A stretch of 64,000 bases of DNA from Armatimonadota bacterium (GCA_031400935.1 JANNQV010000027.1:124001-188000); one strand, 5' to 3'. Counted from the stretch's first letter, positions 12,725 through 22,524 are shown. A program made the numbers and translations. Notes: generated by a model from the letters alone, not told the origin.

Positions 12725-13537
12725 CTATTTGCGTCGTCGTCGCAAGAGTCCAAGAACTCCAACGCCCAAGGCAAGCATGGTTGCTGGTTCTGGCACTAGT
12801 TTCAAATTATTGACGTAAAAGTCGCCATTCGTGTTGAATGTGTAGAACTGGGCTGCTTGGAGTGCTACTCCAGACGAAATGAAGACACCCGTGATCGTCG
12901 TCGTTGAACCGCCGAAAGGCGTAAGATCCAAACGATAGTTACTACCACCGGTCATGCTCAGCGCCAAGTCAAGACGCTGTCCGCCTACGACTGATAGAGA
13001 AGTTGGGGTTGATCCTGCTGCGTCGCCAATTGTCCAAAAACCGCCGCCAGCACCATTTACGCTGACCATATCGCGATTTGGGTTGCCAACGTTTACGCTT
13101 CGAAACTCAACGCCAAAAGCGCCTTGAGTGTTCGCTTGACCGGCATTTCCGCCGCCCGCCATTATGCTGGCCGAAAGCACTTGGCCAACAGTCATTGGAA
13201 GTAAAAGCCTGCGCCTTGCATCGGCTCCGCTAAATGCTTCGGTTCCAGCCCGTAGTCCGAATTGCTGCGAACCCATATTTAGGCCAACTGGCAGATTTGT
13301 GATAAGCGTCGTGCCCTGATTTGGGAAGGTGCCATAACCGCCACGTTGCCATGGATTGAAGCCGAAGCCTCCGTTGAGTCCGTTCAGGGCCAGGGATTGG
13401 TTACCGAGCGGCGTCCCAACTTGGATGTACTCGTTGCCAACTGTATAGACGGCATTCGATGCGTTGTCAGCAGCAATCTGCGCATACGCAGAAACTGCGA
13501 GGCAGGAGCCTAGAGCAAGAATTAGAGTTTTTTTCAT
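12725..13537 (-). CDS. PEP-CTERM sorting domain protein
   Basis: Signal peptide ending AYA; C-terminus VPEPATMLALGVGVLGLLRRRRK. Confidence 0.92.
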   Translation of the reverse strand: MKKTLILALGSCLAVSAYAQIAADNASNAVYTVGNEYIQVGTPLGNQSLALNGLNGGFGFNPWQRGGYGTFPNQGTTLITNLPVGLNMGSQQFGLRAGTEAFSGADARRRLLLPMTVGQVLSASIMAGGGNAGQANTQGAFGVEFRSVNVGNPNRDMVSVNGAGGGFWTIGDAAGSTPTSLSVVGGQRLDLALSMTGGSNYRLDLTPFGGSTTTITGVFISSGVALQAAQFYTFNTNGDFYVNNLKLVPEPATMLALGVGVLGLLRRRRK

Positions 13538-13993: not shown

Positions 13994-14068
13994 TGGCTGC
14001 CGCAATAAGATTCGAACTTATGACCCGCTGATTAACAGTCAGCTGCTCTACCGCTGAGCTATGCGGCA
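13994..14068 (-). tRNA. tRNA-Asn (GTT)
   Basis: Cloverleaf: TGCCGCA acceptor stem, GCTGA-CT-GTT-AA-TCAGC anticodon arm, TTCGAAT T-loop, encoded CCA. Confidence 0.97.
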
Positions 14069-16187: not shown

Positions 16188-17675
16188 ATGAAGCCCACGC
16201 TTGATGATCGCGAGAAGATCTCGCATCTCCTTCGCCGATTTGGATTTGGCGCGACGCCAGAGGAAATTGACTCTTATCTCAAGCTTGGCGTTGACGGAGC
16301 GATTGAAAGTCTGCTCAATTTTGAGAAAGTGGACGAGGGATTTCCCATAAGTCCTTGGGAGTTTTGCTTCGAGGAAGGCAAAGACGAGGTCTATCTCGAT
16401 CCGTTCAGAGTAGTCGGTTGGTGGGGATTGCGAATGGTGCTAACCAAACGACCCCTTCAAGAAAAGCTGACTCTCTTTTGGCATGACCATTTTGCGGTAA
16501 GTGCGACGAAGGTTGAACTAGGTCCCTCAATGCTTGGCTACCTTGAGGCGATTCGAAAGAATTGCTCAGGCAAGTTCGAAACGATTCTAATGGCGATGGC
16601 AAGAGATCCTGCCATGATGCAATGGCTCGACACCATTTCAAATGAAAAGGGACGTCCTAACGAAAACTTCGGTAGAGAACTCTTGGAGCTTTTCACGTTA
16701 GGAATCGGAAATTACTCTGAGCAGGACATCAAAGAGGCTTCGCGCGCGTTTACCGGTTGGGGTATTCGATACCTTCTCTTCGAACAAGGAGGCGAAAAGG
16801 TTCAGGAAGTCGCGAAAGATTGCATCAAAACGGGAAGGCCGATGCTTTCCTATTGCTACAGTGACGATCTCCACGACCACGGCACAAAAACCGTAATGGG
16901 GCAAACGAAGAACTGGACTGGCGAGCAAGTGGTTGAGATGTTGGCGGCTCGTCCCGAAACGGCTCGATATTTGGCGAAGAAATTGTGGAGCTTTTTTGCA
17001 TATCCCGATCCTGCTCCTGCAATTGTGGAACGCTTGGCCAAGGCTTATCAGGATTCAGGGCAAAGAATAAAAGACGTGCTGAGGGCGATGACAAAAACCC
17101 CAGAGTTTTGGAGCGAAAGGTGCGTTCGTCAACGAGTGAAATCTCCAATCGAATACACGGTTTCTATCGTTCGGCAACTTGGCGTATCGCAATTTCTGGC
17201 ATTGCTTCATGGGCCGAATCCGTCTCCGATGAAGCCCATTGCACAACCCCTTCGCGAAGCCGCAGGCGGCGTAACCGGGCTGGCGTTTCAGCAGGGAATG
17301 CTTTTGCTGTATCCGCCCGATGTTGATGGTTGGGAATGGGGATCAGCATGGATCACTACGGATTCGATGACAAAGCGAATTCAGATGGCCGACCTATTAA
17401 TGCTTGGAGGCGCTCCCAAACAAGACTTCGGGCTTGCCAACGCTGTCACCTTGCGGCTGAAAGCTCATGGAAGCGTAGCAAGTAGCCAAGAGATAGCCAG
17501 TTCATTGGCAACGGTATTTGATGCCAAACTCACTGCCGAACAGCTAACGATTATGGCTCAAGCTTGTGATCGTGCCGGCGGCCCTGGGAGCCTCAACAGC
17601 CCGGAAGCTACGGCAAAGATGTATGCGTCCATGTTTCGGCTGCTTTTCGGTTGCCCTGAGTTTCAGTATTGTTGA
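16188..17675 (+). CDS. DUF1800 family protein
   Basis: HLLRRFGFG, LQEKLTLFWHDHFA, PNENFGRELLELFTLG, EASRAFTGW, KSPIE, PPDVDGW, PEFQ. Confidence 0.92.
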   Translation: MKPTLDDREKISHLLRRFGFGATPEEIDSYLKLGVDGAIESLLNFEKVDEGFPISPWEFCFEEGKDEVYLDPFRVVGWWGLRMVLTKRPLQEKLTLFWHDHFAVSATKVELGPSMLGYLEAIRKNCSGKFETILMAMARDPAMMQWLDTISNEKGRPNENFGRELLELFTLGIGNYSEQDIKEASRAFTGWGIRYLLFEQGGEKVQEVAKDCIKTGRPMLSYCYSDDLHDHGTKTVMGQTKNWTGEQVVEMLAARPETARYLAKKLWSFFAYPDPAPAIVERLAKAYQDSGQRIKDVLRAMTKTPEFWSERCVRQRVKSPIEYTVSIVRQLGVSQFLALLHGPNPSPMKPIAQPLREAAGGVTGLAFQQGMLLLYPPDVDGWEWGSAWITTDSMTKRIQMADLLMLGGAPKQDFGLANAVTLRLKAHGSVASSQEIASSLATVFDAKLTAEQLTIMAQACDRAGGPGSLNSPEATAKMYASMFRLLFGCPEFQYC

Positions 17676-17930: not shown

Positions 17931-20018
17931 ATGGCTAAACTCAAAGTCATCCAGCCCGCTAGCAAGCCGCGCCCATCTAAGATGGGAAAGTGGCGGGCGA
18001 TGGTGCTCATAGGGGTTCACGTACTTGTCGCTCTGCACATCTGGCATTGGAAGGCGACGGGCAGCACAGTCACGCCCGTTGAACCCAGTGAGGCGATGCA
18101 AACGCTCGAACTCGGCTATGTGAATGCCGGGTTCGTTTTCTTCGCCTTAGCAATCCTAAGCACACTGATCTTTGGAAGGTGGTTTTGCGGTTGGGGATGC
18201 CACGTTGTGGCTTTGCAAGACCTTTGCTCTTGGATGCTGAAAAAGGTCGGGATTCGCCCGAAGCCGCTTCGCTCCAGGCTTTTGGTTTGGATTCCAGTTT
18301 TCGCCGCTTTCTATATGTTCGCATACCCTTCCCTTGTTCGAGTTCTGGCTGGAAACGGGAACCCGGCTTGGATAGCGCACTTTCAAACTGAGAACTTTTG
18401 GGCGACGTTTCCGAATTGGCAGATTGCACTTGTTACCCTTAGCGTTTGCGGATTTTTGATTGTTGTCTTGCTCGGAAACAAGGGATTCTGCACTTACGCT
18501 TGTCCTTATGGAGGCATTTTCTACCATGCCGACCGCGTCGCGCCAGGCAGAATTCGGGTTACGGACGACTGCGATCAATGCGGCCATTGCACGACCGCTT
18601 GCACTTCGAACATAAAGGTTCATGAAGAGGTTGCTGTATTCAAAATGGTCCACGATTCGGGCTGCATGAAATGCATGGATTGCGTGAGCGTTTGCCCGAA
18701 AGGAGCCTTGTATTACGGGTTTGGATCGCCTATTCCCGTTAAGACTGCCAAAGTACGAGCCGAACGACATTACGATGTCTCAATGCCCGAGGAAGTCGCG
18801 CTTTTTGCGTTGTTTGCTGGTTCGTTTTACGCGTTTCGCGGGCTGTATGACGCGGTGCCGTTCTTGCTTAGCGTTGGGCTTTCTTCGATCAATGCCTTTT
18901 TGCTCTTGTCGTTTTGCAGACTTGTCTACACGAAGGATTTGCGGGTTCAAAGATGGCAGGTGAAGCGCGCTGGGAAATTGACGGCCAACGGCTTCGTTGG
19001 TACCGGAATCGGGCTGGCACTAGCTTCCTTGACAATCCATAGCGGAATCGTCAACTTTCATACTCACGAAGGAACTCGGGCTCTCTTGATAGCCACTACT
19101 CTATCGGAAAGGGATCCGAACTCTTCCGAAGCAACAGAACTCGCAAAGCAGGCGGAAAGCAGCTTTTCAAGAGCGGATTCCATGGCTCTGTTCCCCATCG
19201 CCGAATGGAAATACAAACTTGGCGTGACCGCTCAATTTCGGGGCGATTTTGAAACGGCAAGGAAACAGTTTCGTAAGGCATTGGAATTGGATCCAAACCG
19301 TCCGAATACGAGACTTCAGCTTGCTCATTTAAGCTACATCGCAGGAGATTTTGAAACAGCACAACGGGAATTCGGACTTGTTATTGAATCAAAGACTGAT
19401 CTCGGAGCCCTTTGGTCTGAATATGCCGAATCGTTGTTGCGGCTAGGCAAGAATAGGGAAGCACTTGGCGCGTTCAACCGCGCAGTTTCGTCTGACCCAG
19501 ATCGCCTCTCGAACTTACTGAATAAGGGAATGTTGTTGGCCCAATCTGGAGAACTTGAATCAGGAGCCGAAGCGATAGAGTTATACGTTTCGAAAAACCC
19601 TACAGATTCTGTTGGACATTTGAATCTCGGCCTAATAAGAGCAACCATGGGAAGGGCCGATGAAGCCATTGCTTCGCTTGATCAGGCAATTCGGCTCAAA
19701 CGCGATTCAGGAGCCGCTTATATCGCAAAGGCTCAACTGTTGGCCTCAAAAGGCAAACCAGACGAAGCGTTTCGTGACGCCCTGATTGCCATTAGGTTTG
19801 AGCCGCATAGTCTTTCAGTCGTCTCAGATTTTCTTTCCGTTGTCGTCGCTCTAAAGCTGGAAAAGAGAGCCATTTCCGAGCTTACTTTCCGCGAAAAAAG
19901 GGATCCAAAATTGGCATACATTCTGGCTGGAGTATATGCAGCAATCGGGAATCGAAACAGGTCTCAAGAAATACTTCAAGAAACTTGGAAAACTTTTCCG
20001 AACCTTCCGGGCTTCTAA
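17931..20018 (+). CDS. Membrane 4Fe-4S binding protein (NapH/MauN/FixG-like) fused to TPR repeats
   Basis: GRWFCGWGC, FCTYACPYG, CDQCGHCTTAC, CMKCMDCVSVCP; several TM helices; C-terminal TPR-like repeats (ALELDP, AVSSDP). Confidence 0.85.
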   Translation: MAKLKVIQPASKPRPSKMGKWRAMVLIGVHVLVALHIWHWKATGSTVTPVEPSEAMQTLELGYVNAGFVFFALAILSTLIFGRWFCGWGCHVVALQDLCSWMLKKVGIRPKPLRSRLLVWIPVFAAFYMFAYPSLVRVLAGNGNPAWIAHFQTENFWATFPNWQIALVTLSVCGFLIVVLLGNKGFCTYACPYGGIFYHADRVAPGRIRVTDDCDQCGHCTTACTSNIKVHEEVAVFKMVHDSGCMKCMDCVSVCPKGALYYGFGSPIPVKTAKVRAERHYDVSMPEEVALFALFAGSFYAFRGLYDAVPFLLSVGLSSINAFLLLSFCRLVYTKDLRVQRWQVKRAGKLTANGFVGTGIGLALASLTIHSGIVNFHTHEGTRALLIATTLSERDPNSSEATELAKQAESSFSRADSMALFPIAEWKYKLGVTAQFRGDFETARKQFRKALELDPNRPNTRLQLAHLSYIAGDFETAQREFGLVIESKTDLGALWSEYAESLLRLGKNREALGAFNRAVSSDPDRLSNLLNKGMLLAQSGELESGAEAIELYVSKNPTDSVGHLNLGLIRATMGRADEAIASLDQAIRLKRDSGAAYIAKAQLLASKGKPDEAFRDALIAIRFEPHSLSVVSDFLSVVVALKLEKRAISELTFREKRDPKLAYILAGVYAAIGNRNRSQEILQETWKTFPNLPGF

Positions 20019-20183: not shown

Positions 20184-22481
20184 ATGGTTAAACAAATATT
20201 GAAATTGGGGATCGTGCTTTTTGCTTTAGGCGCGGCAGTTGTTGCTTCCGCACAAGATGTACCGTGGAAAGTTACTGGCGGCACAGCGATTGTGCAATTT
20301 TGGCCTGACAATGTTCGAGCATACGGTCTTGAAATTACAAATTTGACCCCAACGGCGTTTGGGAACTGGCCGATGGAAGGTGGCTACGGATTCCAGATCC
20401 AATCGAGATCTGATCTAAAGGTAATGACCGAAAATCAGGTTTTTGGCTATTTTATGGACGGCCAAGTAAGAGTTAAGGGCGGATTTTCGATTCGATCTGG
20501 AAAAACTTCGGTGCCTGTTTTCAATTTGAGCGTCAAGCCAGTAGGACCGACTCAATCCTCACTACTAGCCATTCGGGACGGGTTCATTGGCGAGCTGGCT
20601 CCTCCGCTGGATATGGACCATGCAATAACATACTTTGACATAGATCGCAGAATATTGACGATGGGCTGGGCTGATTTGAAGTTGTCCCGCGAAGCCGCAA
20701 TGGCACTCGGAAAGCCCGAAGCTGAAGGTTTGCTTATTGGAGGATTCACAGTTTTTGCGAACGTAGCGCCAACGCAAGAGGTTAAGGGTGGTGGCGGCGG
20801 CGGCGGTGGAGGATTTGAAGATAACGTCAACGCCGACGTAAATCTTTTCAACATGAGTGGATTGGCATCCATGGGAAGAGATGGTGTTGCGTATCCAAAC
20901 GGAATTACAGGAATGGCCACATTGACTACATCTTGTAACAAGGGAACAACAAACATTGACTGGTTTCAGCCAATGAATGAAAGACATCCAGTTATCGTTC
21001 AGGACCTATTCCGGATTCGGCTGGGCAGAATAGAGCAGATCGGGTCAGCCTATCTAAAGCATGGATTTTTCGCAACAAACACGACAAACGGCGCTTGCGG
21101 AGTAGGCGTGCATCCCGGAACTGGCACATTGCTAGGGCCTGGCCTTACGGACACATACGGAACAAGCAACAACGGCGACCGATTCTACCTTGGCCCTCGA
21201 TCCGAAGTGAATCCTTTCACAGGGCATTGGACCGCATTTGGCTCGTTCTTTGATGTTGGAACCGGCGGTGCCGTACCCGATGGAGCTCGTTCACTTACTA
21301 GCGGTCAAGCTGGAGCACTCCCAGCCCATAAGAACCGGCTTGAAGTTCGAGATGCGGACCTCATCATCCCTGGAGGCGAATCTCGGCAATATTTGTATCA
21401 ATCGTTCTACCTTTGCGAACAGGACCTCAATTTGGCAAACCAAATTGGGACTCGCCAGGCGAATATCGCTTGGAACGGCTCTACTTGGGCATGTGCTGAC
21501 AATGGTGCATTTATTCCAGACAAAGCCGCAATCGAACAATACGTAACGATGATAAATGCATCGAAAAACGTTGGCGCTGGTGACGTCTTAGCTACGGTAA
21601 ACAGAATCGTAGTTGAACTATCTGGCCTCAACCAAGGTTGGGTCTATGTTGCTTGCAATCCGATCCGGCTTGGGGGCGGGCTTTGGCAATACGAGCTTTC
21701 CATGTTCAACTACACGAGTGATCGCCAGATTCGAGAGCTGAGGATTCCGATGATGACGGGAATGGCAGTCACGAACGTTGGGTTCCGAGACTCTGACCAA
21801 ACGGCTGGCAACGATTGGACAGGTGCCTACTCGAATGGTGAGATAGTTTGGTCAACTCAAACCTTTGCGGTCAATCCAAACGCAAACAGTCTGAAATATG
21901 GCTCGTTGTACAACTTTACATTTACAGCAAATGTGGCACCCATGGCAAATTCTTCAACCGTAGGACTGTTTAAGCCTGGAACAGGAACAGATTTTCCTGT
22001 GAGCGTCATGAGCCCTCCAAATGGAAAGATATCGCCATCTACAATCTCGATTAATTTTGGTTCAAATGGTGGTGGAAACGTAGGAAGCACAGCAACTTCG
22101 GATGATTCGTACTATCGAGTTAACGAAACCGCGGGGTCGCCCTTGAGCTACCCGGCTCAAGTAACTTTGAATGGCTTTGCGCCAATCACGACTCCTGGCA
22201 CCTTAAAGCTTGAAATCGAGTCGGCAGGAGACCGTAACGGCCGATTCCAGTCCTGTGAACTTTGGAACTGGATCACAGGCCAATTTGAAATAGTTGATAC
22301 GAGCTTTATTCGCTTAATTGACACTACAAGAACTGTAAATGTTGGGGGAACAGTATCGAGGTTCGTGAATTCCTCGACGCGAGAAATGAGAGCTCGGCTC
22401 ACGATGGATCGAGGTTCGGCGGAAACACTCTCCTTGGCATTCTTCAAGATAGACATGTTCCGATTCACTATCGGACTTTAG
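20184..22481 (+). CDS. Large secreted multidomain hypothetical protein; central domain has a lysyl-oxidase-like motif pattern
   Basis: RBS GAGGAG; signal peptide ending ASA; Gly-run linker; TTSCNKG, HPVI, KHGF, GPGLTDTYG; beta-rich C-terminal domains. Confidence 0.8.
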   Translation: MVKQILKLGIVLFALGAAVVASAQDVPWKVTGGTAIVQFWPDNVRAYGLEITNLTPTAFGNWPMEGGYGFQIQSRSDLKVMTENQVFGYFMDGQVRVKGGFSIRSGKTSVPVFNLSVKPVGPTQSSLLAIRDGFIGELAPPLDMDHAITYFDIDRRILTMGWADLKLSREAAMALGKPEAEGLLIGGFTVFANVAPTQEVKGGGGGGGGGFEDNVNADVNLFNMSGLASMGRDGVAYPNGITGMATLTTSCNKGTTNIDWFQPMNERHPVIVQDLFRIRLGRIEQIGSAYLKHGFFATNTTNGACGVGVHPGTGTLLGPGLTDTYGTSNNGDRFYLGPRSEVNPFTGHWTAFGSFFDVGTGGAVPDGARSLTSGQAGALPAHKNRLEVRDADLIIPGGESRQYLYQSFYLCEQDLNLANQIGTRQANIAWNGSTWACADNGAFIPDKAAIEQYVTMINASKNVGAGDVLATVNRIVVELSGLNQGWVYVACNPIRLGGGLWQYELSMFNYTSDRQIRELRIPMMTGMAVTNVGFRDSDQTAGNDWTGAYSNGEIVWSTQTFAVNPNANSLKYGSLYNFTFTANVAPMANSSTVGLFKPGTGTDFPVSVMSPPNGKISPSTISINFGSNGGGNVGSTATSDDSYYRVNETAGSPLSYPAQVTLNGFAPITTPGTLKLEIESAGDRNGRFQSCELWNWITGQFEIVDTSFIRLIDTTRTVNVGGTVSRFVNSSTREMRARLTMDRGSAETLSLAFFKIDMFRFTIGL

Positions 22482-22494
22482 TCAAAAACTCTTA

Positions 22495-22524
22495 AGCAGC
22501 CCCAAACGTATGTTTGGGGCTGCT
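22495..22524. terminator. Hairpin terminator between convergent genes
   Basis: AGCAGCCCCAAAC-GTAT-GTTTGGGGCTGCT, perfect 13-bp stem. Confidence 0.75.

Follow-up and report, generated by a model that had tools for sequence, protein, structure and literature searches.

Can a protein without the histidine triad of lysyl oxidase (LOX) share its fold, and could it form the same kind of lysine tyrosylquinone (LTQ) cofactor? The question is raised by a gene in a 64,000-nucleotide stretch of DNA from an Armatimonadota bacterium (GCA_031400935.1, JANNQV010000027.1:124001-188000), referred to here as the window. The gene encodes a 765-residue protein (P0001), which an initial annotation had described as secreted, with a cryptic LOX-like core and a candidate Lys-Tyr cofactor. 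The protein belongs to a large, unnamed family, the core of which is, judging from its predicted structure, very probably a LOX-fold homolog. The genes and residues concerned are:

20184..22481, + strand: gene for the 765-residue LOX-fold protein, one open reading frame (ORF), single copy in the genome
20826..21563, + strand: LOX-fold core domain, residues 215-460, delimited from the model and structure searches
20985..20987, + strand: H268, candidate metal ligand, kept in 443/449 family cores and placed opposite H293 by the couplings V270-L291 and R277-E284
21057..21062, + strand: K292, candidate LTQ lysine (437/449), and H293, candidate metal ligand (444/449)
21150..21173, + strand: D323, Y325 (candidate LTQ tyrosine) and N330, pocket residues lost with K292 in the rows that lack this lysine
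17931..20018, + strand: partner gene, encoding a 695-residue membrane polyferredoxin with C-terminal TPR repeats, ending 165 bp before the LOX-fold gene

All motifs on which the initial annotation relied do occur, in the order given, in the single ORF on the + strand (20184-22481). The 33 residues it counted from K to Y are correct for the window protein; the usual spacing in the family is 31 (range 26-45). As read from the translation, the motifs are:

residues 250-258, + strand: SCNKGTTNI
residues 268-278, + strand: HPVIVQDLFRI
residues 289-295, + strand: AYLKHGF, holding K292 (codon at nt 21057)
residues 309-311, + strand: VHP, holding H310
residues 316-326, + strand: LLGPGLTDTYG, holding Y325 (nt 21156)
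residues 386-393, + strand: LEVRDADL
residues 413-419, + strand: QDLNLAN

The motifs are more than chance, since they are conserved columns of a large family and the best structural match of the modeled domain is LOXL2. Position 321 of the window protein is Leu, as against Cys in 436/449 cores. Searches of Pfam, NCBIfam and the PDB sequences with the protein or its profiles returned nothing relevant, and the Atlas matches to the core were unnamed clusters only (at 0.79-0.83). In a scan of GTDB genomes seeded with the KHGF and DTYG patterns, a relative is encoded by 439 of the 464 candidate stretches. Of these, 78 loci were fetched (Armatimonadota, Planctomycetota, Eisenbacteria, Gemmatimonadota and other phyla); because of the seeding, part of the conservation in alignment A2 follows from the choice of patterns. 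A profile of 83 cores matched 2,313 clusters at 50% identity (E ≤0.001; 1,074 at 1e-30), the best 150 of which were retrieved, while a second subfamily (B), opened from a distant match, gave 2,129 matches, with 119 new ones retrieved. The family is present in 4 of the 201 sampled genomes of the window's phylum and in 60 of 301 genomes of the Planctomycetota, the phylum of G201, where matches in a single genome can number nine or more.

The core model obtained from the 83-row alignment (predicted local distance difference test, pLDDT, 90.3; predicted template modeling score, pTM, 0.88) was compared with 48,161 chains (VIA). LOXL2 (PDB ID: 5ZE3) came first, with Z 10.0 and a root-mean-square deviation (rmsd) of 4.3 over 169 aligned residues. 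The match spans 1-241 of the model and 546-763 of the 5ZE3 chain, i.e., the whole catalytic domain; 5ZE3 is also the only chain with Z ≥8, the next rows (Z 7.1) being generic sandwiches. Foldseek gave 5ZE3 a probability of 0.99 and a template modeling score (TM) of 0.39, with the other listed rows at ≤0.21 and ≤0.19. Staphylococcal pore-forming toxins, which stand above LOXL2 by Foldseek E-value, were rejected (TM 0.10-0.17, rmsd >21). The divergent LOX-type fold proposed in the initial annotation is thus supported by two structure searches of the core model. Further support for the LOX fold is provided by direct-coupling analysis, as the strand couplings C251-T322, A245-T327, T248-I271, and V270-L291 fit the arrangement described for LOXL2, in which the Tyr strand is antiparallel to β4 and the Lys strand antiparallel to β7 (PMC9659206).

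The case for homology rests on the structure match, with little added by sequence, since the sequence-level link is faint. A canonical LOX profile was built from PF01186 proteins of the window's phylum (10 of 13 matches aligned), and it finds 5ZE3 at 6e-22. The profile-profile score of subfamily A was 24.1 against 14.5 ± 1.8 for 60 block shuffles, none of which reached it, in an alignment that covers the N-terminal strand only. In the relaxed path of subfamily B against canonical bacterial LOX, the Lys and the Tyr each fall on the same residue of LOX, and the final two motifs also line up with the corresponding LOX motifs. Two further sites of the core potentially correspond to the calcium site of LOXL2:

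20835..20837, + strand: D218, which likely corresponds to Asp549, a calcium ligand in LOXL2, taking model residue 1 to lie on chain residue 546 with no gap
21423..21443, + strand: D414...N419-Q420, likely counterpart of the C-terminal Asp...Asn-Asn calcium loop of LOX, in an inferred register

Asp549 is a calcium ligand of LOXL2 (PMC9659206), the site comprising Asp549, Glu722, and Asp724. D218, matched by range offset, is kept in 422/449 cores, and D414/N419 are conserved; no counterpart of Glu722 was identified in the core.

The claim that K292 and Y325 are conserved in homologs is borne out, as 435 of 449 cores keep both, and the two are specifically lost together: 12 cores lose both, two lose Tyr only, and none loses Lys only. 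The cores come from an enlarged set (with subfamily B and 79 paralogs from 15 Planctomycetota genomes added; 82 of the 104 matches listed were fetched), in which 449 of 452 cores cover all sites, three having been dropped for gaps, and 83 seeded rows are still included. Since the seed patterns of the GTDB scan include K292 and Y325, the columns were recounted on rows retrieved with hidden Markov models (HMMs), which gave K 142/151, Y 141/151, H268 147/149, H293 149/151, D323 144/151, and H310 16/151; the counts relied on are those of the HMM and phmmer sets. On a FastTree tree computed without the tested columns, Lys changes 10 times and Tyr 11 times, and all nine of nine independent pairs change in the same direction (sign test p 0.004); a smaller first test (166 rows) had four independent pairs (p 0.125). 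Direct-coupling analysis ranked K292-Y325 16th of 20,301 pairs, drawing on the same loss rows. Among the 12 rows without Lys, Tyr is lost in 12, N330 in eight and D323 in seven, while C251, N252, G254, H268, P269, H293, C305, C308, C321, and R385 are lost in none; with these ten other conserved columns intact, the loss of Lys and Tyr is not general decay. As far as sequences can tell, such co-loss is the pattern expected of a covalent pair, since the loss of either residue would release the other from constraint, and it is no proof of a quinone. In LOXL2 (5ZE3), the LTQ precursors lie 16.6 Å apart (PMC9659206, PMC9694262). The formation of a Lys-Tyr crosslink in the family is considered reasonably likely.

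Several paralogs lack Lys and Tyr and keep both His as well as the Cys (P0101, P0120, P0125, P0129, P0141, P0153, P0163, and P0172, as well as L232, L251, and L253); they are candidate non-catalytic or metal-only members. P0163 (860 residues) combines two such cores with a C-terminal part resembling the phosphohistidine domain found in PEP synthase or in rifamycin phosphotransferase; it might represent either a genuine fusion or a chimeric assembly.

The initial annotation was right that the HxHxH triad is missing, and two of the three histidines it offered instead hold up: H268 and H293 are near-invariant and predicted to be adjacent, whereas H310 of the VHP motif, conserved in 16/151 rows, was rejected as a ligand. 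The couplings V270-L291, Q273-A289, R277-E284, and I278-I283 outline a hairpin on which H268 and H293 face each other, while T248-I271, C251-T322, A245-T327, and I271-Y325 bring the Tyr strand beside this hairpin. A two-His metal site beside Y325 is therefore plausible on the basis of these couplings. The His pair is kept in 426/435 cores that have both Lys and Tyr. M264 is conserved in subfamily A only (222/251) and was rejected as a universal third ligand, being absent from subfamily B. H268 may correspond to H630 of LOXL2, which counting from the following strand favors, or to a new position, which the hairpin arithmetic allows. Four members (L203, L255, L221, and L245) keep Lys and Tyr with one or both His replaced, which a strict two-His copper model does not explain.

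Overlooked in the initial annotation was the coupled iron-sulfur membrane protein encoded upstream. This partner has seven hydrophobic segments before its TPR tail, CxxxCH and CxxxCP motifs, and two 4Fe-4S motifs, with PF12801 and PF12838 above cut-off; its best ferredoxin-type match, NapH/MauN (TIGR02163), is below the family threshold (56.4 bits versus a cut-off of 213). In an alignment of 81 rows, which are redundant and equal 51 clusters, the 12 motif Cys are kept in 80-81 rows, the CxxxCH first motif and His36 in 81, His370 in 80, and His150 in 69. Iron-sulfur clusters are cytoplasmic in the NapH-type topology. The 4Fe-4S clusters of the partner are likewise predicted to be cytoplasmic, and its TPR tail and conserved His to be periplasmic.

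Counting the window, 12 of the 79 family loci have the partner gene next to the family gene; they belong to two phyla and show the genes in several orientations, and partners at linked loci share 52-64% identity. Both genes are also present in a cultured bacterium, Rohdeia mirabilis (locus L075). In the reverse test, which used the best 80 of 545 metagenome loci fetched by the partner alone, 23 of the 41 loci that were at least 7 kb long held a family core; none of these 41 held canonical LOX. After clustering at 90%, the family is next door in 14/20 partner clusters with enough flank; 18/25 linked clusters are divergent in gene orientation. Among the 301 Planctomycetota genomes, the partner (E ≤1e-60) occurs in 45, all of them among the 60 with the family, and in 0 of the 241 without it, in a comparison whose center genome was chosen for having both, whose kin are not independent, whose assemblies are incomplete, and in which 6-9 candidates were scored per genome. 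In the window's phylum, it occurs in 2/201 genomes, both among the four with the family. No third recurring neighbor gene was seen at the family loci. It is highly likely that the partner is functionally coupled to the family; as it is mostly single-copy, versus up to nine or more LOX-fold paralogs, we infer that it is a shared maturation or redox factor and not a 1:1 subunit.

In the mechanism proposed here, the protein would be exported by the Sec route and retained at the surface or in the periplasm through its C-terminal domain (domain 4). A metal, most likely copper, would be bound by H268 and H293 with D323 or the tyrosine itself, while M264 may assist in one subfamily only. Y325 would be oxidized to dopaquinone and attacked by K292, as proposed for LOX, to give an LTQ-type quinone. 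The partner would probably supply metal or electrons for this step, as CcoG does for the cbb3 oxidase; CcoG, a related membrane polyferredoxin that serves a redox enzyme, is a cupric reductase needed for the assembly of that oxidase (PMC8475189). The mature enzyme would then act at the cell surface on primary amines or peptidyl lysines, by oxidative deamination. This preferred reading, i.e., a secreted LOX-fold Lys-Tyr quinone enzyme with a rebuilt His268/His293 metal site, matured or re-oxidized with the help of the partner, is judged to have an even chance of being correct, and for amine-oxidizing catalysis the odds appear balanced too. A broader view is more tentative and at present somewhat doubtful: the family might constitute a second, prokaryotic branch of the LOX superfamily, thousands of clusters in size, that makes or recycles a Lys-Tyr quinone free of the triad by means of a dedicated membrane iron-sulfur protein.

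A number of results weigh against this reading. The HxHxH triad occurs in 0/373 cores, and the sequences offer two conserved His only, with no universal third ligand; in LOXL2, H626Q, H628Q, and H630Q each abolish LTQ (Table 3 of PMC9694262). Lys and Tyr are kept without either His in two cores and with one His in seven, and all 12 cores without Lys and Tyr keep both His, so that the two pairs are not tightly coupled, each surviving without the other. The clade of the window is without the Cys308/Cys321 pair. PF01186 is not matched by the protein, by any of the 83 cores (83/83 negative), or anywhere in the genome. The Foldseek E-value of 5ZE3 is only 0.0038 (rank 7), with nothing at E 0.001; subfamily A matches canonical LOX with a profile-profile probability of 4%, in a register unlike that of the initial annotation, and the alignment score of subfamily B is equaled by 5/40 shuffles. 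The partner was not found in 15/60 family-bearing Planctomycetota genomes, a group that includes the majority of the long subfamily A forms with the best scores, nor in 2/4 family-bearing genomes of the window's phylum. No copper-handling gene recurs near the family loci.

If the quinone does form, the protein might be an amine dehydrogenase, re-oxidized at each turnover by the membrane polyferredoxin with electrons passing to the respiratory chain, so that the oxygen-activating copper triad would be dispensable. Loss of the triad in 373/373 cores does go with gain of a NapH/MauN-like partner, and the conserved membrane histidines of the latter, H36 (81/81) and H370 (80/81), could hold a heme or metal relay. 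This is nevertheless unlikely: the 4Fe-4S clusters are predicted to lie on the cytoplasmic side, the partner goes undetected in 15/60 family genomes, no cytochrome or other carrier recurs nearby, and one partner for many varied paralogs fits maturation at least as well. A crosslink could also be purely structural, in a non-catalytic, adhesin-like surface family where K292, D323, Y325, and N330 form a Lys-Tyr bond or a pilin-like Lys-Asp/Asn isopeptide. Up to nine or more paralogs per genome with varied tails, the beta-sandwich domains of the remainder of the protein, the partial loss of D323 and N330 with K292, and the two cores that keep K and Y without either His are all compatible with this. 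It is made quite unlikely by the loss of Lys tracking that of Tyr (12/12) better than that of Asn (8/12) or Asp (7/12), and by the same Lys, Asp, and Tyr being invariant in canonical bacterial LOX; besides, spontaneous isopeptides need no redox partner.

That the two proteins form a sensor pair, the LOX-fold protein binding an extracellular metal or amine and the Fe-S/TPR protein acting as transducer or expression regulator, appears improbable. Divergent genes in 18/25 linked clusters are a layout common for regulators, and the paralogs without Lys and Tyr retain the His pair, yet scans of the partner showed no DNA-binding or kinase domain, and the strict Lys-Tyr coupling is not explained by sensing alone. 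Finally, the likeness to LOX could be a generic beta-sandwich resemblance with motifs matched by chance, as might be suspected from an identity of about 10%, the rmsd of 4.3 to 5ZE3, and the lack of an HMM-level match. However, the Z of LOXL2 exceeds that of every other chain by 2.9 and the match extends over its whole catalytic domain, and the two residues chosen by analogy as LTQ precursors prove to be the very ones that disappear together, which renders this explanation very improbable indeed.

Outside the core, the LOX-fold protein consists of the following parts:

20184..20252, + strand: likely signal peptide, residues 1-23, read from the sequence, with a helix at 2-16 in the model
20256..20783, + strand: domain 1, about residues 25-200, beta-rich and followed by a poly-Gly linker, taken from the model, with no known family
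21576..22019, + strand: domain 3, about residues 465-612, all-beta, taken from the model, a near-constant companion of the core
22029..22478, + strand: domain 4, about residues 616-765, a C-terminal module common to 18 ORFs of this genome

The protein is likely secreted via its N-terminal signal peptide: a hydrophobic stretch (5-23, with the most hydrophobic windows beginning at residues 5-9) is followed by Ala-Ser-Ala before Gln24. The full-length model has pLDDT 92.4 and pTM 0.89, and Foldseek searches with it returned generic multi-sandwich rows only (TM by query ≤0.18). Domain 1 is present in part of the family only, as 102/292 core-bearing proteins reach into it, while the core continues into domain 3 in 268/292; domain 3 found no usable match in the Atlas. 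The last 150 residues (domain 4) match no Pfam family. Domain 4 is likely a lineage-specific sorting or surface-anchoring module, since it ends 18 ORFs here and relatives have dockerin-like or FlgD-Ig tails in its place. The gene has a GC content of 0.488 against a genome mean of 0.487, and the closest named relatives of the protein are from Armatimonadota (89% identity).

Just past the stop codon, between convergent genes, lies a perfect 13-bp inverted repeat with a 4-base loop (22495-22524), by its sequence a likely terminator. Upstream are a PEP-CTERM protein (12725-13537), tRNA-Asn (13994-14068), and a DUF1800 protein (16188-17675), with no link seen to the LOX-fold gene. In eight Armatimonadota loci (L003, L004, L006, L011, L013, L015, L021, and L074), which have no adjacent iron-sulfur partner, a conserved gene for 190-240 residues lies directly downstream of the LOX-fold gene; a PEP-CTERM tail was scored in one of the two products scanned. 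At the Planctomycetota loci L030, L038, L046, L047, L049, and L071, genes for B12-binding radical SAM, PMT-type glycosyltransferase, and MFS proteins are found nearby (four loci each).

Literature searches, with subscription journals, supplements, and the supplementary sequence sets of PMC4448552 outside their scope, gave no description of the LOX-fold family or of the family-partner pair among the papers listed. The available parts of PMC11951088 name lysyl oxidase as the only enzyme with LTQ, describe this cofactor as formed autocatalytically, and mention that it had not been captured in its mature form in any solved structure; its biogenesis has been called elusive for lack of a suitable recombinant protein (PMC9694262). 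If the reading as a partner-assisted quinone enzyme were true, the family would represent the first partner-assisted LTQ biogenesis or, in the dehydrogenase version, the first LTQ dehydrogenase linked to respiratory electron transfer. With the Lys-Tyr pair under joint selection without the triad, the requirements of LTQ formation become directly testable, for which the family offers soluble test proteins, natural controls lacking Lys and Tyr or His, and a candidate maturation factor. It also suggests that Planctomycetota, Armatimonadota, and related phyla carry out amine chemistry at the surface that has gone unrecognized, some genomes holding nine or more copies.

The window protein is built like lysyl oxidase and is not filed as a member, because it has neither the triad nor a PF01186 score. 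It resembles lysyl oxidase (PF01186/IPR019828; human LOX and LOXL2, PDB ID: 5ZE3) in the predicted fold of the whole domain, motif order, secretion, and a likely calcium-site Asp, and its Lys-Tyr spacing of 33 is comparable to those of K320-Y355 in LOX and K653-Y689 in LOXL2 (PMC4448552, PMC9659206). In contrast to PF01186 LOX, it is without HxHxH (IPR019828), has its His pair on a hairpin, and falls below any PF01186 score; the family core also has an insertion of about 40 residues after the Tyr and an extra constant beta domain. LOX with an intact His core have been described from prokaryotes (Grau-Bove 2015, PMC4448552; HTU-LOX, PMC6452851), and the red alga C. merolae is the only His-less LOX case in the available passages of PMC4448552. 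The family is like the canonical prokaryotic LOX in consisting of bacterial, secreted LOX-fold proteins, present in the same phylum, whereas the canonical proteins keep the His core, score on PF01186, and are never beside the partner (0/41 loci). Canonical HxHxH LOX (L080-L092) occur in 10/201 genomes of the window's phylum and in 6/16 genomes of its taxonomic family; G165 is the only one of the 201 in which both canonical LOX and the protein family described here were found.

The partner recalls the NapH/MauN/CcoG(FixG)/NosR polyferredoxins (TIGR02163, PF12801) as a membrane protein with CxxxC and two 4Fe-4S motifs, encoded beside a gene for an exported redox-type protein. It differs from them in its CxxxCH first motif, three more membrane segments, the TPR tail, and a LOX-fold client. 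The family is thus coupled to an iron-sulfur membrane protein, whereas LTQ formation in LOX is described as autocatalytic (PMC11951088).

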